From: Candidatus Doudnabacteria bacterium
GTDB lineage: Bacteria > Patescibacteriota > Doudnabacteria > UBA920
Direction of reading: 5' to 3'
Assembly: GCA_963837465.1 (NCBI GenBank)
Contig: CAWINB010000001.1
Span: 139,915-203,914 of the forward strand
DNA: 64,000 nucleotides
The notes under the pieces were generated by a model. The model ran no database searches. It was not told the DNA's origin and saw only the letters and a program-made list of their open reading frames with translations. The translations under genes were made by a program, and so were the position numbers. Below, piece by piece: positions 6,632 through 48,472 of the stretch (positions are counted from its first letter, which is position 1; every line of letters begins with the position of its first letter).

Positions 6632-6661
6632 GACGAAACAAAATCAGCGCCGCAAAAAAAG

Positions 6662-31592: not shown

Positions 31593-31667
31593 GGCGCTAT
31601 CGTCTAACGGTTAGGACAAGTGGTTCTCATCCACTAAATCGGAGTTCGATTCTCCGTAGCGCTACCA
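31593..31667 (+). tRNA. tRNA-Glu (anticodon CTC), CCA encoded; 3' end overlapped by the recombinase gene
   Basis: Acceptor GGCGCTA/TAGCGCT, anticodon stem AGTGG/CCACT with loop TTCTCAT, T-arm CGGAG-TTCGATT-CTCCG. Confidence 0.8.
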
Positions 31668-33153
31668 AGACCAAACTTTCAGACAATTTAGATTTGTTCA
31701 CAAGGGCTGCCTTAAGGGCAGCCCATTGTGTTTGTGGGACAAATTCTATTTTTTGATTTTTTAAAAACAGGTTCGAACCGAAGATTTTTTGTGCAGCCGA
31801 TTTTTTGGGGTGCAATTCTGCGCCCTGCGTGATTGCGCCCAGGTTTTCTGCGTCTTTGAGCCATTGTGTCAGGGGTTCAAACCAGGCATCCCGCTTTTGT
31901 TCAAGACGGGCAATTTGCTCCTCCAAAGACTTCTTTTCCAAGACGAGCTTATTCTTTTCTTCTCGGTACTTCTCCCTCTCAATATCCTGGTCTAAATACA
32001 TATTCTGTAGTCTTTGGAGCCTGCGGTCAATGCCCTCAATTTTTGACCGCAGGTCTTTGACAAAAGCCGACGTGGACTGTGCGGACTGCTGCCGTTTCTG
32101 CTGGGCCATAGCTAAAAGCTTTTCTGCCCAGCCCTTGGGCATAATAAATTGTTTTAATGTTTCTGACAGCTGGTTGATTAAAACCTCGTCCCTAACAAAG
32201 GGCTGTGAGCAGACAACGTTTCTCTTGGTGCAATGGTAATAAACATAACGGTGAACGTTGCCGTTTTTTTGGCGCTTTTCCCTTTGCTCAGCAGTAACAC
32301 CCCGGCCGCACTCTCCGCAGTGGAATAATCCACAAAGCAATTGGGGGTTATTTTTAGTTTCCTTGTGCGGCCTGCCCCGATACTTTAAAACTTCTTGGAC
32401 TTTATCAAACAATTGCTTGCTAACGATTGGCTCGTGCTTGCCTTGATACAATTCGCCACCAAAGCGGAATAGTCCACAGTATATAGGGTTAGAAAGCATG
32501 TAGGAAATTTTATCCCGTTTGAAAAGTTTGCTGCCACGGGAAATTAATCCCTGACTTTTAAAAAATTCTCCTACATCCTCCAAACGGTACTGGTCTTTGG
32601 CATACAGCTCAAAAGCGGCTTTGACGATTGGCGCTTTGTTTTTATCAACAGCTATAGTTTTAGTCCTTAAGTCATTAATGTAGCCGATTGGAGCGAGGCC
32701 TGGGTATTCACCGCGCTTGGCTTTTTCGTACATGCCGCGTTTTGTGTTAGTGCTTAAATCTCTAACATACTGATTGGCAATACCAAACTCCATTTGCATC
32801 ATCAAAACATTATCAGCAGAATAATAACTTTTGTCATGGGTTTGAATATGCTGGATTGTGCCCTCTTGCAGCATCCAGCTAATTTGAGCAGCGTCCACAG
32901 GATTACGAGCTAATCTATCCAACTTCCAGCAGACTATGCCTTGGGCTTCACCTTTGTTAATACGGGCAAGCATATCAGTAAATACAGGGCGCCCGGGTCT
33001 TTTGGCCGACTGTTTTTCAACAAATTCGGAGGCAATATTTAAGCCCTGTTCTTTTGCTAAGGTCCTCAAAACAGCAAGCTGATCTTCAATAGACCGGACT
33101 TGCTTGTCTTCTACATCTGTGGATTTACGGGCGTATAAAAAGTAGCCTGGCAT
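31627..33153 (-). CDS. Large serine recombinase (integrase), intact
   Basis: N-terminal resolvase catalytic motif YARKSTD...Q, recombinase domain, zinc-ribbon cysteines (C..C...C..C), coiled-coil; the stop lies 40 nt inside tRNA-Glu. Confidence 0.9.
   Translation of the reverse strand: MPGYFLYARKSTDVEDKQVRSIEDQLAVLRTLAKEQGLNIASEFVEKQSAKRPGRPVFTDMLARINKGEAQGIVCWKLDRLARNPVDAAQISWMLQEGTIQHIQTHDKSYYSADNVLMMQMEFGIANQYVRDLSTNTKRGMYEKAKRGEYPGLAPIGYINDLRTKTIAVDKNKAPIVKAAFELYAKDQYRLEDVGEFFKSQGLISRGSKLFKRDKISYMLSNPIYCGLFRFGGELYQGKHEPIVSKQLFDKVQEVLKYRGRPHKETKNNPQLLCGLFHCGECGRGVTAEQREKRQKNGNVHRYVYYHCTKRNVVCSQPFVRDEVLINQLSETLKQFIMPKGWAEKLLAMAQQKRQQSAQSTSAFVKDLRSKIEGIDRRLQRLQNMYLDQDIEREKYREEKNKLVLEKKSLEEQIARLEQKRDAWFEPLTQWLKDAENLGAITQGAELHPKKSAAQKIFGSNLFLKNQKIEFVPQTQWAALKAALVNKSKLSESLVLVALRRIELRFSG
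31663..31790. repeat. IR-a, copy 1 (~120 bp; encodes the recombinase C-terminus and ends exactly at the tRNA-Glu 3' tACCA)
   Basis: Reverse complement is near-identical to 33590–33709. Confidence 0.8.
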
Positions 33154-33244
33154 AGCTTTTTGGTTTAAATGTTAAAATCTGTTATCATGATATTGATAGA
33201 ATATCATAACATTATCATACTATCAAATTAATAATATTACCGCA

Positions 33245-33445
33245 ATGCAAAATACTATTGGAGACAACATTAAAAAGAGACGTCTAAAACTCAAACTATC
33301 TCAAGAAGAGTTTGCCCAAAAGTCCGGCGTTAAATATACAACTCTAACAAAAATTGAGAGCGGGGTCATTAAAACTCCTTCGGTTTTAATTGCTGCTAAA
33401 ATAGCAAAAGGCCTAGCAATTTCTATTGAGGAGTTAATAAAGTAA
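33245..33445 (+). CDS. XRE-family HTH transcriptional regulator
   Basis: 66 aa; canonical HTH_3 (LSQEEFAQKSGVKYTTLTKIE). Confidence 0.75.
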   Translation: MQNTIGDNIKKRRLKLKLSQEEFAQKSGVKYTTLTKIESGVIKTPSVLIAAKIAKGLAISIEELIK

Positions 33446-33589
33446 CTTCTACAATTTTTTTATCAGGGAGCCCATAGCCTAAAGCTGCGCGAACTGGGAG
33501 GGTGGGTTAGCGGCTTTTCATTACTTAATTTTTTTGTTTCCTCTGCGTCTTGCGTTCTTGCGCCCTGCGTCCCCCAAAAAATCTTCCCT

Positions 33590-33709
33590 GGTTCCGAACC
33601 TGCTTTTAAAAAATCAAAAAATTGAATTTGTCCCACAAACACAATGGGCTGCCCTTAAGGCAGCCCTTGTGAACAAATCTAAATTGTCTGAAAGTTTGGT
33701 CTTGGTACC
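33590..33709. repeat. IR-a, copy 2 (inverted); gives rise to a 72-aa chimeric ORF at 33534–33752
   Basis: Near-identical inverted copy of 31663–31790; abuts IR-b at ggta/ccc. Confidence 0.8.
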
Positions 33710-34061
33710 CTTATTCGATATTTTACAAACCTATTATACCCAAAACAGCTGACCTTGGCTACCCTAAAACAGCTCTTGCTTAGGGCTGTTTTTTGATTTA
33801 AAATGGGGGTACAAACTAGTTGAACAGCTAGTTGAATCCGGGTTCAACTAGTAAAGTTCCTAAACACCCTAATTCCATTACCTTTTCTTAAACCACAAAC
33901 CTTGACTATCACCACGATTTCCACTGGCAGACAAAGAAAAATAATGGAAAGAAATACTAACTACTAAAATACTTAAAATACTACTATCTATATACTCTAA
34001 AAATATACTAAAATACCAAACTAAAAACTAACCAAAAACAGAAACAAAACAGGGTGCAAAA
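33706..34061. repeat. IR-b, copy A (~357 bp)
   Basis: Exact reverse complement of 45832–46189 over its full length as far as could be read. Confidence 0.85.
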
Positions 34062-34116
34062 TGGGGGTGGAAAAATTTTTGTGTCTTAACCGCCGCGATG
34101 AGCGGCGGGACAGGGG

Positions 34117-36909
34117 GTGGAAAAAACTAAGTTTGCTTTTATGTCAATCCCAAAACTCGCCTTGGCTTATCCGACAACTCACCCTGTAGCCCACAAAGTT
34201 CTATCCCCCGCAGCTAGCACCAAGGGTGCCGATTTTTTCACCGGTCCCCTGTATGCCAGTACCATTGGCAACCTTCCTGCGTGGGAGCGGACGACTTCAA
34301 ACATAGCGGGCTGCCTGTTCCTCGTAGTGATTGGCTACACTGTGCTCCACAAACTTGGCTTCTTCCCCAAACACGCCTTTGAAAAGATAAAGCTAAAAAG
34401 CAAGGACGTAGACAAATGGCTAGAGAACACTGTGTACTTTGAAATCACCATCCCCAAGAACTCCCAGGCCACGGCCTTTCAAATCCAGCAAAAGATATTA
34501 AAGGCCTTCCACTCAATATATATTGATCCGGTGGAAGGCGCACATAACTTTAGCAGCCTTTGGGAGTTTGTCTACTACTTCCAAAAGCTCTGGAGAAGAA
34601 GCAAAGTCAAACGCTCCCAAAAGACTTTCTTTAGTATGCAAATCTGGGCCCAGCACCCGTTCATTTCTTTTAGGCTCCAAGTCCACGAAGCTGACTTTAC
34701 CCGGGTGGAAAAAGCCATTTTTAACGCCTACCCAGCGGCAGAGATTACCATGTTAGACAAGTCCCAACCCCTTAAGGAAATTACCCAATTTTCCCAAGAC
34801 TTTTTAGCATATGGGGAGACAACTATAGAGGGGCCATTTTACCACAGACTGAAAACCTTTAAGGACGTATCTAGCGAGCCTGTAGATTCTATGGTCTCGG
34901 TCATGGAAGGCCTAAAGAAGGGCGAGTTTATGGTCTACAATGTCCTAATTTCTCCCTCTTCCCATTACTTTAACCAAATCCTCCATTACCTCATAGAAGA
35001 GCAGGAACAAATGGGAGCGGTAGATATGGGCAGACGCAGGTTGACTATCCAAAAGCGGGGCTCAGGCTCGGAATTGGCCAACGCTTTAAACTCGGCCATG
35101 ATTGAAAAGATGAAAGCTCCACTGTTCCAAACCATAATATCCTACTGGACGATAGCCGAAACCAAGAACGAGGCTGAGAATAAACTCCGCAGCATCCAAG
35201 GGGCTTTGACCGAGCTGAACCAAAAAAATATGAACACGCTTAAGTCTAAGCTGCTGTTTACCAAGCAGGTACAGAAACTTGAGCGTAAGGGCAAGCTGGC
35301 TGGCATAGTCAGCCAAAAGCCGGTGTTCAAGTTAAGACGTTTTCCGTTTTGGCCCTTTGCTAAGTTTAAAAACTATGGGCAAAAAATTTCTGACGGGGAG
35401 CTTTACTCCTTTTGGCATTTGCCTAATACCCAAGATGGGACGGTATCGTCCATTAACCTAACCAGATTTAAAAAGCTCCCGGCCAGTCAGCAAATCAGGC
35501 GCTACCCTAAGGACTTCTTTCTGTCCTTAGGCCATAGTAATTTCCGTATGCAGGATAACGCCCCCATTGGCATTGCCACTTGGGATGACTTAAAAAAGCA
35601 CGTTTACATCTTAGGGGGAACAGGAGCGGGGAAGTCCGAAACCTTGAAAACTATCTTAAATAGCCTGTTACAAAAACAAGGCCAGGAAAAGTGTGCCCTG
35701 CTCATCGTCGACCCCAAGAATGACTTTGCCACGGATTTGCTAACTATGATACCGGAAGACCGCAAAGCTGACGTAGTATATTTTAACCCCCAGAGACAAA
35801 AAGACCGCCCGTTGGCTTTTCCGTTCTTCTCCAAGTTTTCAGGACAAAAGACCGATGACGAAAAACTGGAGTTTTTAATCTCCATAATGAAAAGGTTTGT
35901 CCAGATAGATTCCGCTTTTTCCTGGGGGCCGGAGCTCGAAAATATCCTGCGCCAATTATTTGCTACGGCCTACATACTGCCCCAGCAGTCCCTGTCCGGC
36001 CTTGACCTGCTCCTGCACCAACCCGAGCAAATCGGCAGGATGATTCCCTTTTTACCCCCAAGACTTCAAAACTTCTGGTCTAACTCCATATTAAAGCGCA
36101 GCAGCAATGATTTGGCTAAGTATCTAGCCACTACCAACAACAAGCTGGGTAAGTTTTTGGATTACCCGGAGTTTATGAATATCGTGGACAGGCAAAACAC
36201 TAAAATTTCCTTTGAGGATATGATTAACCAAGGCAAGATATTTATCGCAAACCTTGGCTCCAGTAGCGAGCAGATGAAAAAATATTATTCTGTTTATCTC
36301 TCTGCCCACATTGCCGAGGCTATCTTTGGGCAGGCCAGACTTTCCAGCGAAAACAGAAAACCCACGGTCTTTGTGGTGGACGAGTTTCAAAGGGTGGCCA
36401 GTGATATCTTTGAAACCCTATTTTCCGAAGTTAGAGCTTTCAATACTGCTTTGGTAATCAGCAACCAATTCATGGGACAATTAGACCCAAGAATCCAAAA
36501 ATCCATAGAGTCCAACATTGCCACTAAAATCTTTATGCGTACCCAGTCGGTGGATGACGCAGAGATTGCCGAAAAGATTTTAGGCGGCAAGGCCTTAGTG
36601 GAGGACATTATCAACCTGCCCACTGGCACGGCTTACATTAAAACCTTAGTTTCGGGTGTGCCGCAGGACGCAATGTCGATAAACATTAAAAAGACCGAGC
36701 ACCACAGGGAAAACGCCAAAGAAACCGAGGATTATTTTATTCAGCAGACTATGGAAAAATACGGCACGCCGCAGGACGATATTATCTGGGAACGCACCGC
36801 CGTAAATTCCATATACTATTCAGGTGACAACGAGGAACAGTTTAGTAAAGCTATGAGTCAAAAAAAGACGACTGCCGAGACGGCAGGTGAAGCGGAGAAG
36901 CAGCCTTAA
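34117..36909 (+). CDS. Membrane-anchored P-loop ATPase, TraD/VirD4/TcpA-like (AAA-like/DUF87) conjugative coupling-type protein
   Basis: N-terminal TM helices; Walker A ILGGTGAGKSE; Walker B VFVVDEFQRV; 930 aa. Confidence 0.5.
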   Translation: MEKTKFAFMSIPKLALAYPTTHPVAHKVLSPAASTKGADFFTGPLYASTIGNLPAWERTTSNIAGCLFLVVIGYTVLHKLGFFPKHAFEKIKLKSKDVDKWLENTVYFEITIPKNSQATAFQIQQKILKAFHSIYIDPVEGAHNFSSLWEFVYYFQKLWRRSKVKRSQKTFFSMQIWAQHPFISFRLQVHEADFTRVEKAIFNAYPAAEITMLDKSQPLKEITQFSQDFLAYGETTIEGPFYHRLKTFKDVSSEPVDSMVSVMEGLKKGEFMVYNVLISPSSHYFNQILHYLIEEQEQMGAVDMGRRRLTIQKRGSGSELANALNSAMIEKMKAPLFQTIISYWTIAETKNEAENKLRSIQGALTELNQKNMNTLKSKLLFTKQVQKLERKGKLAGIVSQKPVFKLRRFPFWPFAKFKNYGQKISDGELYSFWHLPNTQDGTVSSINLTRFKKLPASQQIRRYPKDFFLSLGHSNFRMQDNAPIGIATWDDLKKHVYILGGTGAGKSETLKTILNSLLQKQGQEKCALLIVDPKNDFATDLLTMIPEDRKADVVYFNPQRQKDRPLAFPFFSKFSGQKTDDEKLEFLISIMKRFVQIDSAFSWGPELENILRQLFATAYILPQQSLSGLDLLLHQPEQIGRMIPFLPPRLQNFWSNSILKRSSNDLAKYLATTNNKLGKFLDYPEFMNIVDRQNTKISFEDMINQGKIFIANLGSSSEQMKKYYSVYLSAHIAEAIFGQARLSSENRKPTVFVVDEFQRVASDIFETLFSEVRAFNTALVISNQFMGQLDPRIQKSIESNIATKIFMRTQSVDDAEIAEKILGGKALVEDIINLPTGTAYIKTLVSGVPQDAMSINIKKTEHHRENAKETEDYFIQQTMEKYGTPQDDIIWERTAVNSIYYSGDNEEQFSKAMSQKKTTAETAGEAEKQP

Positions 36910-36955
36910 TTTTTTTCAAATTTAATTTTAAAATTTTTACTCATTTAAAACAAAT

Positions 36956-37837
36956 ATGGAACTTCAACTGACCCCGCGACAGGAACTTAAAGCCTACAAC
37001 ATCAGGCTCAACCAAGGCACCTTGGAAATTTTGACTTTGGTGTTTGAATTTAAAATTGCGGCAGCGTGGCACATTTCCAGGCTTCTGTCCGGGCGTGACC
37101 AAAGCAAGTATGTTTATCTCAAGCTCCGCCGGATGTGGCAGGCTGGCTACTTGGACAGCTTTAAACTATTTACCGGCTCTATGGCAGGAGTGCCTTTGTA
37201 CTACATGCTCTCAAAATCTGGCCTAAAAGTTTTACTTAAAGAAAACCTCTACAGTCCTAGCCAAATATCCAAGTACCCGTCTCCCCAGATTTTGTTTTCT
37301 TCCGGGCTATTTGAGCATGAAAAGGATGTGGTGGAACTGGCCAGCAAGGAAGCCAAAAATCAGACCAAGGATTTAAAGATTAAGTTTAAGGGCGAGATAG
37401 CCTCTCAAGGCACGGACTTTATGGACGACAAGACCATTGAAGCCTTAACCCCCGACTATACGGTGCTATATACTTATCCAAACCAAACACAAATCGTTTA
37501 CAGCGAACTGGAACGCACCCAAAAGGGCAAGCAGGCCATGCTCCGCAAGGTAGAGCGTTACAAAAATTTCCTGAAACCCGAGCAGCTTAAAAACAGAACT
37601 TTAAGGCTTATTTTTCAAACGCCAGAAATGGAAGCCAGCTTTTGGCTGAACATTTATACTAACCGACCCGGGCTTTTAAATACCATTAGGCTAGTAACCA
37701 CCAATACTTTACTGCTTAAAGACCATAACAAATTTGTGGAAGAAATTTATGCTACCCACAAAACAATTAAGCTATCCAAGCCTGTGAGGTTAGTAGTAGA
37801 CACTTCTAAAAGGATAAAGCTGTTTGAGTTTTTGTAA
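36956..37837 (+). CDS. Hypothetical protein, possibly replication-relaxation family (winged-helix N-terminus)
   Basis: Weak resemblance only; adjacent to the coupling-type ATPase. Confidence 0.3.
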   Translation: MELQLTPRQELKAYNIRLNQGTLEILTLVFEFKIAAAWHISRLLSGRDQSKYVYLKLRRMWQAGYLDSFKLFTGSMAGVPLYYMLSKSGLKVLLKENLYSPSQISKYPSPQILFSSGLFEHEKDVVELASKEAKNQTKDLKIKFKGEIASQGTDFMDDKTIEALTPDYTVLYTYPNQTQIVYSELERTQKGKQAMLRKVERYKNFLKPEQLKNRTLRLIFQTPEMEASFWLNIYTNRPGLLNTIRLVTTNTLLLKDHNKFVEEIYATHKTIKLSKPVRLVVDTSKRIKLFEFL

Positions 37838-37952
37838 AGACGTTAGGTTAAAAAATTTTAATCAGTTTTTTAACGCCCAAACTAATTGCTCTATTATCTT
37901 ATCGCCCATGAATTTAGCCACCCTTTTCAGAGTGGCTAAATCTTGTATAGGA

Positions 37953-38114
37953 TTAAACTTCAAAGTATTTTTTGATGTTTAAATTGCTGGGGCCGCAACC
38001 CGGACAGGTAACGGTGTCCAGGTCAATGACTTCTTCCCGGCTGGCGCTCCAGCAATTCTGGCAGTTAGGGCAAGTGATTAAATACTGAAAGTAAGCTGTT
38101 AGTGTTTTTAGCAT
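37953..38114 (-). CDS. Small zinc-ribbon protein (53 aa; CPNC...CPGC)
   Basis: Translated by hand from the minus strand; too short for the ORF track; two CxxC pairs. Confidence 0.35.
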   Translation of the reverse strand: MLKTLTAYFQYLITCPNCQNCWSASREEVIDLDTVTCPGCGPSNLNIKKYFEV

Positions 38115-38224
38115 TGTTTTAAAGTTAGTTGTTTAAGAAAGATTTTTGTTTTGGTATTAGTTTAAATTGTGTATCATTCTCCTTTCCTTTGGCTTAATTA
38201 TCATGGCCAAATAGCACTGGCCGA

Positions 38225-38320
38225 AAGTTTTAGGTGTCAACGGGATTGAAAATATTTTATGCCCCACGGGAAATAAATTATTTTCACCCTTGAGCATCCT
38301 AAAAACCGGACAGTATAATG
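38225..38320. repeat. Promoter-bearing ~96 bp repeat, copy 1 (ggtgtcaacggga...tataat)
   Basis: Shares ggtgtcaacggga, the tttatg stretch, gataaa and the -35/-10 layout with 39603–39698. Confidence 0.5.
38290..38319 (+). promoter_or_regulatory. Sigma70-like promoter (TTGAGC-18-TATAAT) inside repeat copy 1, upstream of the 229-aa ORF
   Basis: -35 and -10 hexamers read directly. Confidence 0.45.
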
Positions 38321-38379
38321 AGGGCAGATAAGGAAGCAAAGGAAAAGCTGTTCCCATTTAGTTTTATTTTTGATATATT

Positions 38380-39069
38380 TTGAACATGAATACATTACCA
38401 ACAATGCACACTGGCGGAGTAGAATTTTTTAGGTTTGCCGACCTGCAGTCGCTAGACGAGGCCAGGTATTTTGAATGCATGGATTCGCTAAGGCCGCTTT
38501 TTGAAAATCCTGATTTCAAAAATTCAACCCCGGGGTTTTACATAAACTACATTTCCAACCAGCCGGACGACGGCTTAATTTCCTTACGCCTAACTTACTA
38601 CACCATCGACCCTGCCAAAACCCAAGAGAATATAACAAAATTTGTTAGCAATAACAAAAACGGCCTCGCTCTGTTTGACTCCAAATGGACTGGTCGTCCC
38701 GAAGCAAATCAAATTTTGAGCATGCCCGAAAAGGAGGAGATGGATTTTAGAAATTTTTTAAACCGCAATACCCAAATCGCTTTAGAGGTATTAAAAAGTT
38801 TTGGGGTAAAACAATTTCGGGACTTAGTTTTAAACTATCGCCATAGGCAATTACTGCAAGGAGTACCACCCGCGGTCATCTTTAAGCAAGTCTTTGAACA
38901 GCATAGCGGCTATTACAGCCAGCTAAAAAAAGACTTCTTGGCAAGCGAATATTGGACTGGCTTGATCCGACTTTTCCATGGGCAAAATCCAGGGCTACAT
39001 TTTTTGGTAAATATGCTAGCCTTACCTGAAGCCCAATATTATTCAGCTTCTCCCGAAGCCATTTTATAA
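38380..39069 (+). CDS. Hypothetical protein (229 aa)
   Basis: No recognised domain. Confidence 0.4.
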   Translation: MNMNTLPTMHTGGVEFFRFADLQSLDEARYFECMDSLRPLFENPDFKNSTPGFYINYISNQPDDGLISLRLTYYTIDPAKTQENITKFVSNNKNGLALFDSKWTGRPEANQILSMPEKEEMDFRNFLNRNTQIALEVLKSFGVKQFRDLVLNYRHRQLLQGVPPAVIFKQVFEQHSGYYSQLKKDFLASEYWTGLIRLFHGQNPGLHFLVNMLALPEAQYYSASPEAIL

Positions 39070-39073
39070 TTTT

Positions 39074-39556
39074 CTACATCAGCCCTTTATCTCTAAAGCT
39101 GGCATAAAATTCAGCTGTTACAATCACGTGATCTAAAACTTCTATGCCAAGAAGTTTTCCGGCATCTTTCAGACGCTTGGTAACTGCGAGGTCTTCGTCA
39201 GATGGCTCCAGACTGCCGCTGGGATGGTTGTGAGCAACAATCACTGAGCAGCAGTTTTTTAATATAGCTGTCCTGAATGTTTCCCTTGGATGAATTAAGC
39301 TGGCGTTTAATGTGCCAATGCTTATTACTTCCTTACCTGTTATTTTGTTTTGAGTGTCAAGAAAAAAGACGCAAAAGTATTCTTTTTTAGCTTTTCTGAA
39401 ACTCTTGCATTTTTCAGCCACTTGAGCTGGGCTGTAAACACCTTCTGGCATAGGCTTAATTTGCAAGTTTTCGTTAACATAATTTTTGGCTTTTTCGTTA
39501 GCCTCGGATTCGTTCTCCGCGGTAAACTGATAATTGATGTTAATTTGGTATTCCAT
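39074..39556 (-). CDS. RadC-like JAB/MPN-domain protein
   Basis: JAMM motif HNHPSGSLEPSDED, conserved Ser and Asp; 160 aa. Confidence 0.85.
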   Translation of the reverse strand: MEYQININYQFTAENESEANEKAKNYVNENLQIKPMPEGVYSPAQVAEKCKSFRKAKKEYFCVFFLDTQNKITGKEVISIGTLNASLIHPRETFRTAILKNCCSVIVAHNHPSGSLEPSDEDLAVTKRLKDAGKLLGIEVLDHVIVTAEFYASFRDKGLM

Positions 39557-39602
39557 AAAACTCCTTTTTGTTTACTTGTTATGGAGCAAGCAAACCGACC
39601 GC

Positions 39603-39698
39603 AGGTTTTTGGTGTCAACGGGACTAAAACCGATTTTATGGCTTACGGCAGATAAAGAGGTTTTACCCTTGCACACCCAAAAAACGGCCGGTATAATC
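39603..39698. repeat. Promoter-bearing ~96 bp repeat, copy 2 (TTGCAC-17-TATAAT), followed ~70 nt later by a terminator
   Basis: As copy 1; near-consensus sigma70 spacing. Confidence 0.5.
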
Positions 39699-39767
39699 TA
39701 AAACCCACAAGGAAACAAAAAGTTTTTGGTTTAAATTGGCGCGCCTAATGCTTTATCATTGAAATAG

Positions 39768-39799
39768 AAAAAACCATCCAGCAAATTGGATGGTTTTTT
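39768..39799. terminator. Bidirectional rho-independent terminator (aaaaaaccatccagcaaattggatggtttttt)
   Basis: Perfect 8 bp stem with A- and T-tracts on both sides; lies 3' of the giant minus-strand gene. Confidence 0.7.
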
Positions 39800-39835
39800 C
39801 TTACGCGCTCGAGCGAGGACGTTTTTGTAGTTCTT

Positions 39836-42800
39836 TTACTTTAGGCTGTTAATAAAGTTCCGGGTTAAGGTATCTAGCGCGCCAGTAGCGGCACTAATAC
39901 CGATTTGAGTTTTGTATTGGCTCTGAAATTTCTTTAAAGCGGCTTTGGTTGCAAGACCAAACAAAGTGGTTTCGTGGCCTGGGGAGCCAATTACTCCATT
40001 TGGCGCGACTGGGAAATTATTTTGGTTTAAAAATTGCTGCAAGGCAGTGACGTCTGCGCCTTTGCTTAAGTAACCAAGATTTCTGGCAAAGGTCATGGAC
40101 GGAGGAACGAGGCCGGTTGCCTGATTGGTTGCAGAAGTAGCAGAACTGGAAGTTTGACCCAGTATTTGGCCAGCAATTTGAGATTGTATTGTGTAAGGGG
40201 CTTTAGTGCCTTTTAGTACGGTTAACTTCTCCCCACTCTGGCCTTGGTAGGTTTGGAAGCTTGAAAAAGTATCAAAAGGATACAAACCACTTGGCTTAAC
40301 CAGGTAAATGGTAGGATTTCCTTTAAACTGCAATAACTGCCCATCGTGAACATTATAGGGCAGAACTATGGTAACAGTACTTGGGTTATTGGTAGTTGGT
40401 AGGGTAATCCCTATGGGTGGAAATGGTAATGTCTGTGGTGGGGTTGATGTAGGGGTGGAAGTTGAAGCAGGTGGCAAGGTTACCACAGTTCCTGCCGCGG
40501 CTAGAGTGGTAAATATGTAATCCCCTGAGGCATTAAACTGTAAGTTAGGGTCTTTAACCCTAAAATGGTAAGTGGTGGCAGGGTTTAGGCTGGTTAGGGC
40601 AAGACTGTGGTTTGTTACAGATGTAGAACTGGAAACTATGGAGCCGTAACTATTAGTTAAACCATAGTCTATGGCAGAGCCAATTTGGTAATTAGTCTGC
40701 CAAGTAACAATGGTTGATGTTGCCGTTGTGGAAGCAACCGTAACATTACTAAAGCTGGCATAGGTCGCTCCGCCTCCGCCTCCTGAGCTGACAACATTGG
40801 TAGTGCAGGAAACGGATACATTGGTAATGTTAGATGAGGCTACTGTACCGGTGCCGTTAGTGATATTGCAAGTCTGGCCGGACGGCTGAGTTAAAACCGT
40901 GACGCTATATGTACCGCCGGTGCTAGTGGCCGTGGCGAAAATAAAGCTAGTATTAGTTGTGGTGCTTATATTATCCCCGCCATTGTTTTGCAAAACCACG
41001 GTGCCGGTTAAGCCAGAAATACTGCCGCCAATTGTGTAAGTTGGATTATTGGAACACGAAACTGAAACATTGCTAACATTTGCCGAAGACACTGTACCGC
41101 TGCCGTTAGTTACATTACAGGTCTGTCCAGAAGGCTGCGTTAAAACCGTAACGGAGTAACTGGCACTATTATTTAAAGCTGTAGCAAAAGTAAAAGTACC
41201 ATTAGTCGAAGTGCTATAGTTATCGCCACCGTTATCTTGCAACACCACTGTACCCGAGAGACCCGATATGGTGCCGCCGATAGTGTAAGTTGTTAGCGCT
41301 ACATATTGATACGCGCCCATGTCCCAAGGTCCTGTTGTTGGTCGACTATTGCCAGCCGCATCGGTTGTGGGCAGCCCTGCTGATGTTAATACACTAGTAA
41401 GATTTGTTCCTGTTTGGTAGGCTGGCGAAGCAGAGGAAGATAATTGTAAATTGGTAGAACTAATAAATTTTGGATCCGCGTTAGCCCCGTGTGACTCTTG
41501 ACTATTACAGGTCGCAGATAAATATAAGGGCCAATTTCCCCAGCAACCAGTCAACCCGGTCAAACGAACTGGATTACTTATATTTGTCCATCCATAAAAA
41601 TCATCATAATCAGATGACCAACCTGCGGTGGTGGTTGCGTCTTCAGAATATATAGCAGCTTGAGAGCCAGCGAAAATGTTATTCCTAACAGTGAGACTGG
41701 GAACAGGCCCGCCTGCAAGGCCAGCTGTTATAAGTCCTTGCCAAGCAGCCTGGGGGCTACTGGTGTCCATGTTGAAAGAATTATTATAAATATAGGCTTG
41801 TCCACCAGGAACAGTATAAATATTCATATAATTCATCTCAATCACAGTTCCTCCATTTGAAGCGGAATCCCATCCATGATTATTATAAATGTAGACCGGT
41901 CCTGCCGTACCAGAAAAATACATAAAAGCAGTCACGCCAGTTTCCGCAGGAGGATTGGCTCCAGAGGTGGAAATACTAGAAGATTGTGTCCAGCTTGTAC
42001 CCGTTGTTATTGGCGTGGAATTTTGTTTATAAAGCGTACTGCTCTCCCCCGCGGTACTAAAATACACATTCCATCCTGAAACTGGTGAACATTCCGGAGG
42101 AGAAGAAACTTGGATGGCCTGATTCGGAGCGGATGTGGTAATTGAAGCCTCGGGAGAAAAATTACTTTCACTTACGCCTACGCAGGTCGTCTCAACATAA
42201 TAAGTTCCAGCAACAGGAGCTGCTCCGGAAACACTAATAAGCGCTGGCGTAGTTGTTGGGAACTGTACATAGTTGCTCCAGTTCCCATAAAAATAATTAT
42301 TATAAATAAACTCATTTGTAGTGTAAGACGATGGGTCGTTTGACACAGAAGAGAAAGTAAAAATACCGTCAGTATGATATCCCGCGCTGGCCATCTGATT
42401 GTGAAAATCGTGAATTAAGTTATCATGAATAGATACCCCATTTATTACGGTATTGGCATAAGGAGTTGAGATTGCGATACCCCACGTACAGTTTGAAATA
42501 TCGTTGCCACTAAATGTGATGTTTTGTAACGTTTTTGAAGTACCGTCACCGGGTCGGTAATAAATAGCAATCCTTGCGTATACTGACAAAACCATATTCT
42601 TCACTGTTATATTTGAGCTGGAGCCTTGAATTACGACAGCTTCATTGCCTTGGTTTATTCCTACCACTCCGATATTTTGCAGTTGTAGATTGTCCATTGT
42701 AATATATGAGCCCGTGATCAAAAAGTACCCGTTCATTTGCGAAGGAGATACGGTATTTTGGCTTCCTCCATCAAAAATAGGCCGTGTCCAAGAACCTCCT

Positions 42801-45229
42801 GAATACCAGCTTTTGTTTATACCATAATAATCCGGCGTCCCGGATGCTCCAGAATTAGTTATATTCCACGGTGCAATAGTGTTATCCCAAGTTATTCCAC
42901 CCCTGAATATAAATTGGTCGCCAGGATTATGTGTGTAGGTTCCGGAAAATCCCTGCATACCAGGCGCGCGCTGCCAGGGCGTGGAGGTAGAAGTCCCATT
43001 ATTTGAGTCACTTCCGTTTTGAAAATCAATATAATAAATTCTTGCCTGTGTTGTTGCAGTTGCTGTAGTGCTGCTCGCAGATGTATTTCCAATTGCATCA
43101 AAAGCATCCACATAATAACTATAAGTGGTGCTGGCATTAAGTCCGGTGTCAGAATAAGAGGTTAGCGAGGTAGTGGCTATGTGTAAATTGTTTCGGTAGA
43201 TATCATAACCGGTCACGCCAACATTATCCGTAGAGGCGTTCCAAGTAATATTAATTTGGCTGGCGGATGTTGTTGAAGCGGTAAGGCTAGCGGGAACGGA
43301 TGGAGGCTGAGTATCTATATAAAATGTGCCATCAGTCGTGGTGGCAACATTACTTTGGGCATCAGTTGAGGAAATTTGGTAATGATAGGTGGTATTATTA
43401 GTAAGACCGGTTAAGGTAATGGAATGGCTAGTCACCAGAGCCGGAGTGGACGAAGACGAACCATAACCTGAACTAGTACCATAATTTATTAGCGAGTTAG
43501 CGGAATGATTTGTGGTCCAGCTAAAAGTGGCCGTGGATGATGCGGTGGTAGTGGAAACACCTGAAATTATAATCGGATTTTCAATATTGACCGTCGTTGA
43601 GGCGGTGGAAGTATTGCTTGAGGTATCGGTAGATAAAGCCCAGAGAGTGGTTGAGCCATTGGCAACAGCAGTTGTGTTCCAAAGTATGGAATAAAGATTA
43701 CCACTTGGGGTAGTAGTTGAATTTATTAGAGTACTGGAGGCAAATGTGCCGCCATAACTCCCGTAGTAGAAAGCCACGCTCCCTACCGCTACGTTATCTG
43801 TAGAAGAAGCGGTTAAGGTAGTCGAACCTGAAATAAGGGCGTTATTGGCAGGAGAAGTCCAGGCAACATTAGGAGCCGTAAGGTCTGGCACAAAATATTG
43901 GTCAGCGCCAATGTCCCATGTACTGCCGCGGCTTTGACCGTCTATGTCTGTGGTAAAATTTAATGGAGATGAATCACCAGAAGTATTAGTACCCACACCT
44001 TTTAGAGCCGAACCAGATGTTATGTGATAATCTTCACTCCCAGGAGTAACATTTATAAATGTGGCAGTGCTGGTAGCAATTCCGGTTAAGCCTGCTGTTC
44101 CACTAGCATCTCGACTTGCACAGGTGGTTTTTGTAATCGTCCCAAAATAATCACTAAGCGCCCCTCCGCCAGCATAAGTGTTTTTGCATACTACTGTTCC
44201 GCCCGTTTGCCTTATGCCAACACGGGCATTAATCACAGTTGAGCTATAAATGTTAACGGAATTTGAACTGCTTGTAAGAATCCCAGTCTCGTTAGATAAA
44301 TTTGGTACAAAGTTGAATAGGATTGTATTCCAAATATTTACTTTAGCATTTGCAGCACTAATATTTATACCGTTTTGATTATAGGTTGGGTCACCGCTTG
44401 CTTTAATAATAGAATTTGATAAATCGGCTTCGTTAAATGCGCCATTATCCAAAAAATTTAAAATATTGCGGTTTACGACTGTAGGACTTACATTTGTTAA
44501 TTGTAATCCATCTAGTTTTATAAAGTCTATGCTTCCAACGTTGATAGCATAATTATCCGTCGGTGACAAATACCATTTAGTTGTATCCCATTTTCCGGCG
44601 GCTCGCTGGCTTTGATTGACTTCAGCCGTAGTGCTTGTTGGTGTATAAATTCGAATGTAATGGGTAGCATCGGTGGTTAAACTTTGAGCATTCACTCCTG
44701 TTGTGTCCGGTCCGGTATCATAATAAACAGGAACATTCAAAACCACATCAGCGGAAACAAGGCTTGTGGTCGCTATATGATTAGTATCAGAAGCCTTAGG
44801 CGTTCCATTGAATACATTGTTCAAACTAGAAAATGCGTGGGCAATAGAATTTACAGTGGCGTTACTTACATTACTGCAAGGAGCGCCCAGGGCTGTAACT
44901 AAATTCCAGACAGAAGTGGATGTTTTAGAAGCTATGTAACAGATGGAAGAAGTGTTAAAGGTGACCTGATCTCCTACACCGAGGTTGGTGGCAGTCTGAG
45001 CATAGTTGAAAGTAGCTTGCCCCGCTCCTCCGGCAATAGTCATGGTGCAGGCACCCGTGGTTGAACAAGTGGCTCCTCCAGCTCCAATACTATGGTCGCT
45101 GGTATTTTGCCCGACAGAATAATATACATTGGCCGTGGCAGAGGCTTTCCCAGCCAGAGAAAAACCACACCCTATAAACACCACAAAAAATGCCAGTAAG
45201 GTTAATTTGTTTTTTAAAAATTTAGTCAT
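39836..45229 (-). CDS. Giant secreted surface protein (1797 aa): signal peptide, parallel beta-helix (pectate-lyase-like) region, Ig/FN3-like repeats, C-terminal peptidoglycan-binding domain
   Basis: N-terminal signal/TM (LLAFFVVFIGCGFSLAG); repeated TYTIGG(T/S)ISGL(S/T)GTVVLQ(D/N)NGGDN modules; beta-helix style N..I..N repeats; C-terminal GADVTALQQFL...PNGVIG...T..A..KFQ (PG_binding_1-like). Confidence 0.8.
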   Translation of the reverse strand: MTKFLKNKLTLLAFFVVFIGCGFSLAGKASATANVYYSVGQNTSDHSIGAGGATCSTTGACTMTIAGGAGQATFNYAQTATNLGVGDQVTFNTSSICYIASKTSTSVWNLVTALGAPCSNVSNATVNSIAHAFSSLNNVFNGTPKASDTNHIATTSLVSADVVLNVPVYYDTGPDTTGVNAQSLTTDATHYIRIYTPTSTTAEVNQSQRAAGKWDTTKWYLSPTDNYAINVGSIDFIKLDGLQLTNVSPTVVNRNILNFLDNGAFNEADLSNSIIKASGDPTYNQNGINISAANAKVNIWNTILFNFVPNLSNETGILTSSSNSVNIYSSTVINARVGIRQTGGTVVCKNTYAGGGALSDYFGTITKTTCASRDASGTAGLTGIATSTATFINVTPGSEDYHITSGSALKGVGTNTSGDSSPLNFTTDIDGQSRGSTWDIGADQYFVPDLTAPNVAWTSPANNALISGSTTLTASSTDNVAVGSVAFYYGSYGGTFASSTLINSTTTPSGNLYSILWNTTAVANGSTTLWALSTDTSSNTSTASTTVNIENPIIISGVSTTTASSTATFSWTTNHSANSLINYGTSSGYGSSSSTPALVTSHSITLTGLTNNTTYHYQISSTDAQSNVATTTDGTFYIDTQPPSVPASLTASTTSASQINITWNASTDNVGVTGYDIYRNNLHIATTSLTSYSDTGLNASTTYSYYVDAFDAIGNTSASSTTATATTQARIYYIDFQNGSDSNNGTSTSTPWQRAPGMQGFSGTYTHNPGDQFIFRGGITWDNTIAPWNITNSGASGTPDYYGINKSWYSGGSWTRPIFDGGSQNTVSPSQMNGYFLITGSYITMDNLQLQNIGVVGINQGNEAVVIQGSSSNITVKNMVLSVYARIAIYYRPGDGTSKTLQNITFSGNDISNCTWGIAISTPYANTVINGVSIHDNLIHDFHNQMASAGYHTDGIFTFSSVSNDPSSYTTNEFIYNNYFYGNWSNYVQFPTTTPALISVSGAAPVAGTYYVETTCVGVSESNFSPEASITTSAPNQAIQVSSPPECSPVSGWNVYFSTAGESSTLYKQNSTPITTGTSWTQSSSISTSGANPPAETGVTAFMYFSGTAGPVYIYNNHGWDSASNGGTVIEMNYMNIYTVPGGQAYIYNNSFNMDTSSPQAAWQGLITAGLAGGPVPSLTVRNNIFAGSQAAIYSEDATTTAGWSSDYDDFYGWTNISNPVRLTGLTGCWGNWPLYLSATCNSQESHGANADPKFISSTNLQLSSSASPAYQTGTNLTSVLTSAGLPTTDAAGNSRPTTGPWDMGAYQYVALTTYTIGGTISGLSGTVVLQDNGGDNYSTSTNGTFTFATALNNSASYSVTVLTQPSGQTCNVTNGSGTVSSANVSNVSVSCSNNPTYTIGGSISGLTGTVVLQNNGGDNISTTTNTSFIFATATSTGGTYSVTVLTQPSGQTCNITNGTGTVASSNITNVSVSCTTNVVSSGGGGGATYASFSNVTVASTTATSTIVTWQTNYQIGSAIDYGLTNSYGSIVSSSTSVTNHSLALTSLNPATTYHFRVKDPNLQFNASGDYIFTTLAAAGTVVTLPPASTSTPTSTPPQTLPFPPIGITLPTTNNPSTVTIVLPYNVHDGQLLQFKGNPTIYLVKPSGLYPFDTFSSFQTYQGQSGEKLTVLKGTKAPYTIQSQIAGQILGQTSSSATSATNQATGLVPPSMTFARNLGYLSKGADVTALQQFLNQNNFPVAPNGVIGSPGHETTLFGLATKAALKKFQSQYKTQIGISAATGALDTLTRNFINSLK

Positions 45230-45315
45230 CGTAAAAAAATAAAAAGCCCGTCAAAAACGGAGCTTAATTAGAAATATTAAGTTTGTATAATCGCAAAACT
45301 GGCGAGCGTGTTTTA

Positions 45316-45337
45316 CTCTCTCTCTCTCTCTCTCTCT
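45316..45337. repeat. (CT)11 dinucleotide microsatellite in the 5' region of the giant surface-protein gene
   Basis: ctctctctctctctctctctct read directly, ~90 nt upstream of the start at 45229 (minus strand). Confidence 0.9.
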
Positions 45338-45364
45338 GCTAGCGCGTTTAAGATTTTGGACATT

Positions 45365-45667
45365 TTAGTTTTTTTCTGGTAATTTTTGTAAGGCTCGGGC
45401 TTTAATCTCTTCTAGGGTGTCGGCCGGTACTGACTTGCCGAGAATCCTTTCAGCCAGTTCCAGCATTTTATTTAAGCTTGGTTGACTTTTAAATTTATCC
45501 GCTATGATTTCCTGAGCACCTTCTTGGGCAGGAGTTTTATCCTCAACAGTTATCCCGGATAAGTGAAGCATTGAGACATAGGCGGATAAAAGTCTGGCAC
45601 ATTCTTCCAGATAAGCCGGGCTGTCTTCGGGCTTAGGGACCAATTCTAGTCTATTAGGATAATCCAT
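45365..45667 (-). CDS. Hypothetical protein (100 aa)
   Basis: No recognised domain. Confidence 0.4.
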   Translation of the reverse strand: MDYPNRLELVPKPEDSPAYLEECARLLSAYVSMLHLSGITVEDKTPAQEGAQEIIADKFKSQPSLNKMLELAERILGKSVPADTLEEIKARALQKLPEKN

Positions 45668-45831
45668 AATTACTACAGCTCTTTATACAAATATTATAGT
45701 ATATTTTACGATTTAAAGCCAGGATTGACTAAGTATTAGATTTGCTAGACATTTTGGGCCTTGTTTATTGGTCAGTTTTCCCGTATTTTTCTATGTTTTT
45801 TGCTTTTCTCCACCACCCCCACCCCCCCTGT

Positions 45832-46189
45832 TTTTGCACCCTGTTTTGTTTCTGTTTTTGGTTAGTTTTTAGTTTGGTATTTTAGTATATTTTTAGAGTA
45901 TATAGATAGTAGTATTTTAAGTATTTTAGTAGTTAGTATTTCTTTCCATTATTTTTCTTTGTCTGCCAGTGGAAATCGTGGTGATAGTCAAGGTTTGTGG
46001 TTTAAGAAAAGGTAATGGAATTAGGGTGTTTAGGAACTTTACTAGTTGAACCCGGATTCAACTAGCTGTTCAACTAGTTTGTACCCCCATTTTAAATCAA
46101 AAAACAGCCCTAAGCAAGAGCTGTTTTAGGGTAGCCAAGGTCAGCTGTTTTGGGTATAATAGGTTTGTAAAATATCGAATAAGGGTACC
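45832..46189. repeat. IR-b, copy B (inverted); overlaps the last 30 codons of the second recombinase
   Basis: Reverse complement of 33706–34061. Confidence 0.85.
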
Positions 46190-47703
46190 ATCGGCGATTT
46201 TAGAGCGGGTTGCAATCAGATCGAAGGGAGAACTCGGCGTGATCTCCAGGAGTTTTCCGTTCAGTACCCGGTTCGAGGTCAGAGAATCTACCATTTCGCG
46301 TTTTTCCGGCATGATGCCGACTTTGTACGCTGAATACGCGGTGTTCGCGCGTTCGAGAATTTCTAGCAGCTCATCGGCGACATTGCGGTTGCCGCTTTCC
46401 CAGCCAGAGAGTGTTTCCGACGTTTCCAGGCGCTCCGTGAGGAGCGCCGTTTTTCGTTGCTCGAACAGATCCTTTTCGACCAGCCGGTCGATGTAGGCAT
46501 CGGTGAGGCGGTTCAGCCGGTCGTCAATCTGGCCGAGCTTCAGCTTGAGGGCGGCGATGGCATCCTCGGTTTGCTTGTGACTGTCAGCTTTCAACCGGCG
46601 GAGTTCCTGCCAGCAGTATTGCTGCTCATCGGGAAGCAGCCGTAGTTGAAGGAGGGTTTCGAGAAATGAATTCTCGGCAACCTCTTCCCGGATCGCTGTT
46701 GTGGGACACTCGCGAGTTTGGCAGCGGTAGTAGACGAACCCCTTGTGAGTTTCGCCGATCAGGGTATGGCCGCAACCTTTGCAACTCAGCCTGCGGCGAA
46801 ACAGAAAATCATGGCGGTTGGTCCGCGTGTTGGTTTTTCCGTGGAGCACATCCTGGACGCGCTGAAAGAGCGCCTTGGAGATTAGAGGCTGGTGAGCTCC
46901 GAGGAAGGACTGACCGGAAACCTTGATGTGGATGAGGCCCATGTAGAAAGTATTGTTCAGCAATTTGGTCAGGCCGTTCATGGTGACCTGCTTGCCACTG
47001 CGCCCGCGCAAGCCGATGCGTTCGGCTTCGTGAAGTAGATCGTGAAAATTGGCCGTGCCGGTGGAATACTTTTCAAACAGATGGCGCACCAGGGGCGCAG
47101 TCTTGGGGTCTGGCTCCTTAGGTTTGCCGCTGCTGATGTTCCGATACCCCAGCGGGGCTGGCATGGGCAATATGCCTTGCTTGAGCCGTCCATAGAATCC
47201 CTTCTTGGTTTCTTCTTTGAGGTTGCGGATGAAATCGGATGCCACAACCGCTTGGATGTCCGCCGAGAGTCGTCCGCCGCGAGAATTGAGGTCCAGACCT
47301 TCGTTGGCGAAGTGGACTTCGACGCCACGGTCGATGATTTCGCCGAGGTCAGCCCAATCCTTGAGGTTGCGGGCGGAGCGGTCGATCTTGTGAATGACCA
47401 CACCGCGAACCGTGCCAGATCTCAGCCGCCTGATCATCTGGGTGAACACCGGGTGTCGGACGGCAAGAGGAAGCCATCACAGTCCCAGCAATCCGGCGTA
47501 GTCGCTCCGGGTGGCAACACGTACGGGGAAGTATCGAAAATAGACCGCTCCCTCTCATGCTTCGGGCCGTAAACGACCAAGTGCTCTGCGGTCTGATTTG
47601 TGCACTGGCCCCAGCCGCGTCCGCGGAGAATACGGAATGGCGGACGAATCAGGTCTCCATAATCCAGATCGAACAACAGCATGTCCTCCGCTCGGCACTT
47701 CAT
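46097..47703 (-). pseudogene. Second large serine recombinase with a disrupted N-terminal catalytic region
   Basis: The 450-aa ORF (46097–47449) starts inside the resolvase domain (GVVIHKIDRSARNL) and keeps the recombinase, zinc-ribbon (C..C...C...C) and coiled-coil parts. The upstream catalytic segment is scattered across three frames (...VRVATRSDYAGLLGL* ; ...DCDGFLLPSDTRCSPR*). Confidence 0.55.
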
Positions 47704-48471: not shown

Positions 48472-48472
48472 A

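Follow-up and report, generated by a model that had tools for sequence, protein, structure and literature searches.

The window analysed here is a 64-kb stretch of a Candidatus Doudnabacteria contig, and the subject of this report is a group of genes within it that is best read as a mobile island of ~14.5 kb (positions 31663-46190), inserted at the CCA end of a tRNA-Glu(CTC) gene in a Patescibacteria chromosome. The element comprises a large serine recombinase, an Xre-type regulator, a rightward operon of a coupling-type ATPase and a relaxase candidate of the MOB_C class, and a convergent leftward operon encoding a 100-aa protein, a 1797-aa protein and a RadC-like protein (Table 1). All open reading frames (ORFs) listed in an initial annotation of the window were recovered; a conserved 53-aa zinc-ribbon ORF on the reverse strand (37953-38114) had been overlooked. 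The small-genome, host-associated type of bacterium proposed there fits the size of the source contig (699,532 bp) and the relatives of the element, all of which were metagenome-assembled genomes (MAGs) of Patescibacteria.

A TACCA core was common to three junctions. Two of these, J1 at the tRNA gene and J3 at the opposite end, fit the attL and attR sites of an element that extends from 31663 to 46190, and the third, J2, reads as an inverted internal copy of the attP junction. GC content jumped from ~0.42 to 0.54 exactly at J3. The truncated recombinase that defines the right flank had a Pfam Resolvase match beginning at profile position 52, and the frames upstream of it were closed; the element was apparently inserted between the tRNA-Glu gene and a resident, older GC-rich island. 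An intact recombinase and attL/attR sites with the TACCA core provide the integrase and flanking sites that characterise an integrative mobilizable element (IME). Such elements also have a relaxase and/or an origin of transfer (oriT) and no mating-pore genes, and here a MOB_C candidate was found, with no match to a type IV secretion system (T4SS) in the 64 kb. The VirB4-type ATPase and mating-pore genes of a self-transmissible integrative conjugative element (ICE) were absent from the window. We suggest that the element is probably an IME that has its own coupling protein and MOB_C relaxase and borrows a T4SS in trans.

Transfer genes and related loci

The ATPase ORF (34117-36909) gives 930 aa from a GTG start, and the public protein record begins at M9 (position 34141); 922 aa is probably the true length. 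The protein had a single strong hydrophobic segment (residues 59-84), and its Walker A (GGTGAGKS at 500) and Walker B (VFVVDE at 751) motifs were invariant across 23 homologues. Pfam matches above curated cut-offs were DUF87/HerA (1e-13), TrwB_AAD_bind (7.5e-12), FtsK_SpoIIIE (1.6e-6) and TraG-D_C (6.5e-6); in bits, PF10412 scored 45.3 (cut-off 20.5) and PF12696 26.5 (cut-off 22), with DUF87/HerA slightly higher at 52.4. The transmembrane segment, the Walker motifs and the TrwB_AAD_bind and TraG-D_C matches bear out the membrane-anchored TraD/VirD4/TcpA-like ATPase of the initial annotation. The profile searches proposed there were productive for this protein, with domains of type IV coupling proteins (T4CPs) above cut-off, and returned no direct Pfam or NCBIfam match for the 293-aa and 229-aa proteins. 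Typical T4CPs have two or three transmembrane helices; the N-terminal transmembrane domain of the class is present here as one segment, an atypical topology. NCBIfam matches (CedD, CD1115 VirD4-like, F-type TraD, EccC and plasmid TraB) were all sub-threshold. The 73 close homologues (57-88% identity) came exclusively from Patescibacteria-type sources, and the ATPase adjoined a MOB_C gene in every locus that extended far enough, the window itself showing relaxase linkage only. We regard the protein as T4CP-like and as a distinct subfamily.

The 293-aa protein encoded next to the ATPase had been annotated as a possible replication-relaxation protein, a reading that held, and it makes the accompanying statement that no relaxase was evident incorrect. 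It matched PHROG 9381 ("replication initiation by nicking", 6.7e-7) and had 173 database homologues, mostly of ~298 aa, with PF13814 (Replic_Relax) pre-annotated. PF13814 corresponds to the MOB_C relaxase class (PMC5357655, Table 1) and belongs to the PD-(D/E)XK family (PMC3424549; PMC12857230). When aligned members were scanned singly, PF13814 was matched by 24 of the 30 (homologues 46-81% identical to the window copy; best 1.6e-12), and the L002 copy reached 42.1 bits against a cut-off of 25.3; the window protein shares 46-60% identity with members that have such a match. The window copy and five of the 29 aligned homologues fell below the Pfam threshold, so the membership of the window copy rests on transitive homology; profile-based censuses may have passed it over and may for the same reason undercount the relaxases of the phylum.

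Residues T165-P166-D167-Y168 and E184-x-E186-R-T-x-K190 were invariant in the 30 aligned sequences and may be catalytic. The AlphaFold2 model of the protein was confident (pLDDT 85.5). Foldseek matches, all at E > 1e-3, suggest in it an N-terminal winged helix-turn-helix (HTH) of PadR type (probability 1.0), followed by a restriction-endonuclease-like domain, a predicted arrangement that matches the architecture described for the relaxase TraX (PMC12857230). We consider the protein a relaxase candidate of the MOB_C class.

Relatives were collected by a scan of one genome per species, which yielded 30 loci from Doudnabacteria, Magasanikbacteria, Yanofskybacteria and unclassified Patescibacteria MAGs. 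The ATPase-MOB_C pair was followed directly by a T4SS operon in 20 loci (19 of the 30, and L043), in the order 161-aa gene, TrbC/VirB2-like pilin, 313-aa and 432-aa genes, PrgI and a VirB4/TraC-like ATPase. Where the upstream side was present, a large serine recombinase lay between a tRNA or tmRNA gene and the ATPase. Because of this combination of pair, T4SS operon and recombinase at a tRNA or tmRNA, these 20 loci look like ICEs with a monoderm-type T4SS. A tblastn search with the T4SS proteins of a related locus found no VirB4, VirB2/TrbC or PrgI gene, and none of the 161-, 313- and 432-aa genes, in the window; the annotated lack of VirB4 and pilus genes was thereby upheld.

The T4SS was likewise lacking in L001/L004, L003, L036/L037, L038, L039, L033 and L035, where RadC or other genes stood directly after MOB_C. 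These loci and the window formed one clade in neighbour-joining trees of the ATPase and of MOB_C, their ATPases being 69-88% identical to that of the window. A second small T4SS-less clade consisted of L022/L027/L030. The element appears to descend from a Patescibacteria ICE family with the same ATPase-relaxase pair and a monoderm-type T4SS. One MAG, palsa_1336, held both a T4SS-less element (L001) and an element with a full T4SS (L005), and L005 is a possible helper for its co-resident.

One T4SS-less locus, L033 (a Logan contig from sample ERR10755945), was a second ATPase-MOB_C module, with a MOB_C protein (P0095) 59% identical to that of the window. In place of a T4SS, the genes after its pair encoded a reverse transcriptase (RVT_1) and bAvd, an apparent diversity-generating retroelement.

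The window differed from L001 and L003 by a pN of ~0.12 and a pS of ~0.65-0.70. The resulting dN/dS was 0.07-0.10 across ATPase, MOB_C and RadC in comparisons of the window with L001/L003, and 0.05-0.13 for the 53-aa ORF, ratios that are approximate since dS is near saturation. Such strong purifying selection suggests that the four genes are maintained and not decaying. This bears on the proposal that the element is a former ICE from which the T4SS operon was deleted, leaving the ATPase and relaxase as functionless leftovers. The T4SS operon of the 20 relatives is indeed missing, the neighbouring island is truly decayed (its recombinase is 5'-truncated), and none of the 49 VirB4-type proteins listed in an incomplete search for a helper was on the source contig. 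All ORFs of the element are intact, however, as are the recombinase and both att junctions; dN/dS was 0.07-0.09 (window, L001, L003) for ATPase, MOB_C and RadC; and the T4SS-less loci make up a diversified clade, not scattered recent deletions. We consider decay unlikely.

Mobilization and competing explanations

The interpretation as a mobilizable element builds on the gene families, the synteny with T4SS operons in relatives, the lack of a T4SS in the window, the purifying selection and the junctions. From these we infer that the element is excised, nicked and docked, and what its helper would be. The recombinase would excise the element as a circle. The MOB_C protein would then bind and nick the origin of transfer, for which candidates lie upstream of the ATPase gene, and the element's own coupling ATPase would dock the DNA-protein complex on a T4SS supplied in trans. 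Such a T4SS could come from a co-resident ICE of the same family or be one of the chromosomal T4SSs common in the phylum. In the recipient, the element would re-integrate at a tRNA CCA end.

Several results weigh against this interpretation. The T4CP equivalogs (TraD_Ftype, CD1115 VirD4-like and SXT TraD) scored 19-34 bits, against the 250-521 required. The ATPase has an extra conserved N-terminal domain of ~400 aa and one clear transmembrane segment, which is atypical, and its AlphaFold2 model was poor (mean pLDDT 50.8). A profile search against the PDB gave P-loop-level matches to HerA, DotL, FtsK and T4CP structures; it was set aside as a test of ATPase class, since at that level T4CPs are not distinguished from HerA or FtsK. 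The window 293-aa protein itself had no Pfam match at E <= 0.01 and no NCBIfam match. The structure prediction that had been recommended for it pointed to a winged HTH and a nuclease-like domain, and the nuclease matches (PaqCI, FokI and XisH, with probability up to 0.97) all had E > 1e-3; no MOB_C structure was among the Foldseek PDB matches of the model. No oriT was identified, the repeat module upstream of the ATPase operon not being specific to transfer genes (L052, see below). An excised circle, an empty site and transfer were not observed, and the reconstructed empty site attB was absent from the metagenome contigs. With an ICE-type VirB4 query, none of the 49 proteins listed (8000 candidates scored, an incomplete set) was on the source contig. 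L033, tentatively attributed to the source genome, seems likewise to lack a T4SS.

The last of these points also bears on a second alternative, in which no helper is needed: the ATPase alone would move DNA, like the FtsK-like TraB of Streptomyces plasmids and actinomycete ICEs (AICEs), or type IV pili or a competence apparatus would serve as conduit. The element has one translocase-type ATPase and a DNA-binding, nuclease-like protein only, and the source genome would hold two T4SS-less modules (the second, L033, by tentative attribution). The ATPase also gave weak matches to plasmid_TraB (7.3e-5) and to CedD, an archaeal DNA-translocating ATPase (1.5e-11), and its large extra N-terminal domain is unexplained. 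However, these matches amounted to 21.5 bits against 800 for plasmid_TraB and 43.6 against 600 for CedD, and the closest ATPase homologues were embedded in canonical T4SS operons. TraB systems work without a relaxase, whereas MOB_C is strictly linked here; neither the TraB equivalog nor the lack of a relaxase that mark double-stranded DNA transfer of the actinomycete TraB type was found. Transfer by such a self-sufficient apparatus is in our view improbable.

The DUF87/HerA match, the best of the Pfam matches (1e-13), raises a third alternative, namely a role in defence or maintenance, with an ATPase of HerA/MADS type and the 293-aa protein as an effector or as the replication initiator of the excised element. 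PADLOC matched the ATPase to mad8 (3.5e-21), with weaker HerA matches, and a Pycsar system lies next door. In addition, the name Replic_Relax originally referred to the replication and relaxation of plasmids (PMC3424549). MADS is an eight-gene operon (bioRxiv 10.1101/2023.03.30.534895), however, and no other mad gene was present: the remaining mad models had no match among the ten element and neighbouring proteins scanned, a set that left out the serine recombinase, the Xre regulator and the 1797-aa protein. A MADS/HerA assignment from the PADLOC matches was rejected, as a mad8-like ATPase does not make up the mad1-mad8 operon. The HerA partners NurA, Sir2 and DUF4297 were absent, and the Pycsar genes belong to a separate island of different GC content. 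The initial annotation had held that its transfer reading would fall if the ATPase belonged to a HerA or FtsK family and homologous loci had no transfer-associated neighbours. Despite the DUF87/HerA top match, relatives of the ATPase head T4SS operons, which follow the pair in 20 loci. A defence role is very improbable, and we retain the mobilizable element with a borrowed T4SS.

Terminal repeats, cargo and neighbouring genes

The recombinase gene and the Xre-type HTH gene lay in a cassette (31663-33707) between 113-nt inverted repeats, the left arm carrying the recombinase C-terminus; L001 and L036 had an HTH gene as well. The same layout was found in L001, L010, L013, L029 and L040, with repeats of 127-239 nt that were 97-100% identical within a locus; repeats were near-identical inside each locus and diverged between loci. 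In these five loci the left arm began at the (N)CCA end of a tRNA or tmRNA; for L001, where ARAGORN called no tRNA gene, the (N)CCA start is a tRNA-like 3' end read from the sequence. The opposite outer flank of the cassette resembled a tRNA T-loop (GGTTCGA), so that the right arm abuts a pseudo-tRNA arm. The repeat of L036 was 84 nt long (100%), its left arm cut by the contig end and with no tRNA visible. The L036 cassette had the opposite orientation, which may be the assembler's choice. It was rejected as proof of inversion, because short-read assemblers cannot reliably orient segments between repeats longer than the k-mer. An exact look-up in public protein records of the recombinase expected after cassette inversion gave no match.

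Only one trait of the element is truly out of the ordinary, namely this inverted-repeat cassette with an inverted copy of attP inside it. A tentative and rather doubtful reading would see in the family a previously undescribed integration architecture of ICEs and IMEs, in which the recombinase gene sits between inverted repeats of 84-239 nt, amounting to an internal inverted attP, and in the window a second, 368-nt inverted copy of the att-proximal module heads the cargo operon. Provided that the recombinase flips these segments, the arrangement would be a Hin-like switch that ties the state of integration to the expression of the recombinase and of transfer or cargo genes. If so, the switch would sit in elements showing that Patescibacteria T4SSs still conjugate.

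A recombinase at least 90% identical to that of the window (P0250) was located on an 868-kb contig. A MOB_C protein (P0091) 59% identical to that of the window was likewise on an 868-kb contig, recovered from sample ERR10755945. Should P0250 and P0091 come from a single genome, the contrast would be a hint that recombinase cassettes and transfer modules are exchanged as units.

The transfer and cargo segment (33703-46190) was flanked by a second inverted repeat, of 368 nt and 99% identity (33703-34070 and 45823-46190), here called the D module. Each copy faced an inward operon, that of ATPase and MOB_C on one side and that of the 100-aa and 1797-aa proteins on the other. The module contained a terminator-like hairpin (33766-33792), ATACTA repeats within an A/C-rich tract, a G-run and a triple repeat at 33814-33852 (CTAGTTGAAC-N2-CTAGTTGAA-TCCGGG-TTCAACTAG). 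The hairpin and the triple repeat, along with a promoter-like site, recurred in both copies. The triple repeat was present in 10 loci and varied in concert in L036 and L038. A similar module preceded unrelated cargo in L052 (~6230-6650), next to the flank without a recombinase. The D module with its triple repeat was considered as the oriT and dropped; because it also precedes unrelated cargo, in L052 and as the window's second copy, we take it for a regulatory module close to att rather than for a proven oriT.

In most public assemblies of L005-L025 and L041-L043 the contig stopped 0-200 nt upstream of the ATPase, in the A/C-rich tract of the D module. An identical ATPase protein occurred in L040, where the tract was assembled through, and in L041/L042, where it was broken. 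This suggests a tract that, in many genomes, is present in repeated copies or defeats assembly.

Between the D module and the ATPase start, some 30-50 nt ahead of the latter, a GC hairpin flanked by GGGGGTGG runs was conserved in 21 of 28 loci; it was absent from the second D copy. Variants included CGCCCCGAC/GTCGGGGCG and CCGCCAC/GTGGCGG, and RNAalifold predicted eight pairs, five of them with double (compensatory) changes. The hairpin could be part of an oriT or a 5' untranslated region element. The triple repeat, the ATACTA repeats and the GC hairpin (34090-34108) are candidate sites for oriT nicking.

Among the remaining genes, the 53-aa ORF was recovered by tblastn at 67-90% identity in L001, L003, L008, L009, L035 and L038, and RadC copies were 68-81% identical in L001, L003, L008-L010, L035, L038 and L039. 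The annotated RadC/JAB protein was clear-cut, and the two proteins described as of unknown family (229 and 100 aa) remained so, with no match in Pfam, NCBIfam, PHROGs or PADLOC. The 229-aa family had 82 cluster representatives, and the protein with 36 of its relatives gave no Pfam or PDB match. The 1797-aa protein corresponded to the surface protein of the initial annotation: it had Big_7, two fn3, Pur_ac_phosph_N (fn3-like), C-terminal PG_binding_1 and choice-of-anchor Q domains, a beta-helix-like region and a signal-peptide-like N-terminus. No counterpart of the 1797-, 229- and 100-aa proteins was found in any related locus, and they are classed as cargo.

The initial annotation had offered, as an alternative to a transfer module, a remnant put to use for surface-protein delivery. 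On such a reading the ATPase would export the 1797-aa protein or help to display it. The two genes do lie between the same inverted repeats, and L040 also has a giant ORF of 1949 aa downstream of the pair. A Sec-type signal peptide and a peptidoglycan-binding domain in the 1797-aa protein point to ordinary secretion, however. Its gene lies in a separate convergent operon with its own upstream region, no homologue is present in any related locus, the L040 giant is unrelated, and the ATPase and relaxase genes are under purifying selection. Of the explanations considered, we give this one the least credence, and the proposal was not sustained; a mobilizable element with the surface protein as cargo remains our preferred reading. 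In L040 (10249-14739, plus strand), the ATPase-MOB_C pair was followed by a 109-aa gene and then by the 1949-aa ORF, whose product matched no Pfam domain and was charged at the N-terminus. Genes of this size may turn up repeatedly as cargo in the related elements.

The GC-rich island (0.52-0.55) adjoining the element ran from 46191 to ~58000 and was headed by the 5'-truncated serine recombinase. It held a complete Pycsar pair, the PycC cyclase (47755-48534, 1.8e-82) and the PycTM effector with two transmembrane segments (48473-48988, 5e-54), together with a Hypoth_Ymh/HEPN-like gene (56279-56995), DUF6879, an M23 peptidase and a SET-domain protein. Its composition suggests a foreign origin in a small genome. 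On the other side, an insertion sequence of IS630 type (29397-30543) lay just upstream of the tRNA-Trp/Thr/Glu cluster, with flanking inverted repeats of 33 nt (91%). Its transposase was split over two ORFs (HTH 29983-30480; DDE_3 29433-29906), by a frameshift or by programmed slippage.

Table 1. Features of the element and its flanks, with the cassettes of related loci. Positions are those of the window unless a locus is named.
Feature	Position	Strand	Basis or remark
tRNA-Glu(CTC), integration target	31593..31667	+	ARAGORN and Rfam; last 5 nt TACCA (31663-31667) form the presumed attL crossover core
Large serine recombinase, 508 aa, presumed integrase	31627..33153	-	Pfam Resolvase 1.6e-23, Recombinase 3.5e-17, Zn_ribbon_recom 4e-8; exact protein on source contig
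J1, presumed attL	31663		tRNA-Glu...GTAGCGC-TACCA-AGACCAAAC (right side begins AGACC)
Left arm (R) of cassette inverted repeat	31663..31775	.	113 nt, 98%; encodes 3' end of recombinase gene
Xre-type HTH regulator, 66 aa	33245..33445	+	NCBIfam and PHROGs repressor families
Right arm (R') of cassette inverted repeat	33595..33707	.	ends in inverted core TGGTA (33703-33707)
D module, copy 1	33703..34070	+	upstream of ATPase operon; pseudo-tRNA arm and core, hairpin, triple repeat, A/C-rich tract
J2, read in reverse	33705		...GAATAAGGG-TACCA-AGACCAAAC
GC hairpin CCGCCGC-GATGA-GCGGCGG	34090..34108	+	between D module and ATPase start
T4CP-like (VirD4/TraD/TrwB-type) membrane-anchored P-loop ATPase, 922 aa	34141..36909	+	Pfam and linkage in relatives
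MOB_C/Replic_Relax-family relaxase candidate, 293 aa	36956..37837	+	predicted N-terminal winged HTH and PD-(D/E)XK-like nuclease domain
Zinc-ribbon ORF CxxC...CxxC, 53 aa	37953..38114	-	conserved in related elements
229-aa protein (probably 221 aa from 38404), cargo	38380..39069	+	small uncharacterised family
RadC-like JAB protein, 160 aa, conserved accessory gene	39074..39556	-	PF04002 6.6e-43
Secreted/surface protein, 1797 aa, lineage-specific cargo	39836..45229	-	domains as in text
100-aa protein, first gene of leftward cargo operon	45365..45667	-	exact protein on source contig only
D module, copy 2, inverted	45823..46190	-	upstream of 100-aa/1797-aa operon; ends in TACCA (46186-46190), presumed attR
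Truncated large serine recombinase (5' end lost), neighbouring island, outside element	46097..47449	-	defines right flank (attB' side)
J3, presumed attR	46190		...GAATAAGGG-TACCA-TCGGCGATT (AAGGG-TACCA-TCGGCG)
Recombinase cassette, L001	6720-9569		
Recombinase cassette, L010	5097-9473		
Recombinase cassette, L013	7611-9584		
Recombinase cassette, L029	7330-9518		
Recombinase cassette, L040	3285-5493		
Recombinase cassette, L036	1-3731		

Comparison with known transfer systems

The window and its relatives belong together as one family of elements that integrate at tRNA genes and have a serine recombinase, a MOB_C candidate and a coupling ATPase, some with a full T4SS and a long-lived sub-lineage without one. 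Such a pattern suggests that genes continue to move by conjugation and mobilization in a phylum of tiny genomes. A recent survey of the phylum (Quinonero-Coronel et al. 2025) reported 58 MOB_C relaxases, with 39 relaxase genes near t4cp and 15 near virB4, and described most Patescibacteria T4SSs as lacking relaxases and repurposed for epibiotic growth (PMC12102498). The relatives found here resemble the surveyed T4SS loci in carrying VirB4, PrgI/VirB3 and VirB2-like pilins, and together with the window they qualify its conclusion on the lack of relaxases. The survey gave no description of where elements begin and end, of serine recombinases, of tRNA targets or of a T4SS-less sub-lineage, and the word "recombinase" does not occur in its text (PMC12102498). 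For bacteria that are hard to manipulate, the recombinase and its att site could serve as genetic tools, as could the relaxase candidate, given an oriT that is still to be found.

Among mobilizable elements, the closest description is that of CloDF13, whose MobB T4CP and MobC relaxase depend on a co-resident T4SS (PMC7431656). Like CloDF13 and the MOBC1 mobilizable plasmids, the window element has its own VirD4-family ATPase beside a MOB_C relaxase candidate and no mating-pore genes (PMC7431656, PMC12857230). Unlike the CloDF13 plasmid, it is chromosomal by way of a serine recombinase, and its host is a monoderm Patescibacterium. Its ATPase is ~920 aa long and, unlike MobB, has ~400 aa of extra N-terminal domain and one clear transmembrane segment; the likeness to MobB and MobC is drawn from gene content. 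Mobilizable plasmids and two putative Streptococcus IMEs that have their own VirD4-type coupling protein also encode MobC relaxases (PMC5704250, PMC7431656). With these IMEs (VirD4 coupling protein and MobC, PF13814; Coluzzi et al. 2017, PMC5357655; Guedon et al. 2017, PMC5704250) the element shares a coupling protein, a MOB_C protein, the lack of a T4SS and a monoderm host. It differs from them in phylum, in integration at a tRNA CCA end, in the recombinase cassette between inverted repeats and in its probable ancestry among Patescibacteria ICEs. The two alternatives of the initial annotation for the module, minimal or novel, therefore come apart: it is minimal, with a T4CP-like ATPase, a MOB_C candidate and no mating pore, and CloDF13 and the Streptococcus IMEs argue against its being novel.

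The prototype of MOB_C, TraX of pAD1, resembles the 293-aa protein in its N-terminal winged HTH and PD-(D/E)XK domain, as far as the predicted model goes. TraX binds five direct repeats 70-120 bp from nic (PMC12857230), and short direct repeats upstream of the transfer genes in the window recall this arrangement. Unlike the window element, TraX is encoded on a conjugative plasmid with its own T4SS. By analogy with these systems, the transfer module appears to be of an already known form, seen here in a little-studied phylum.

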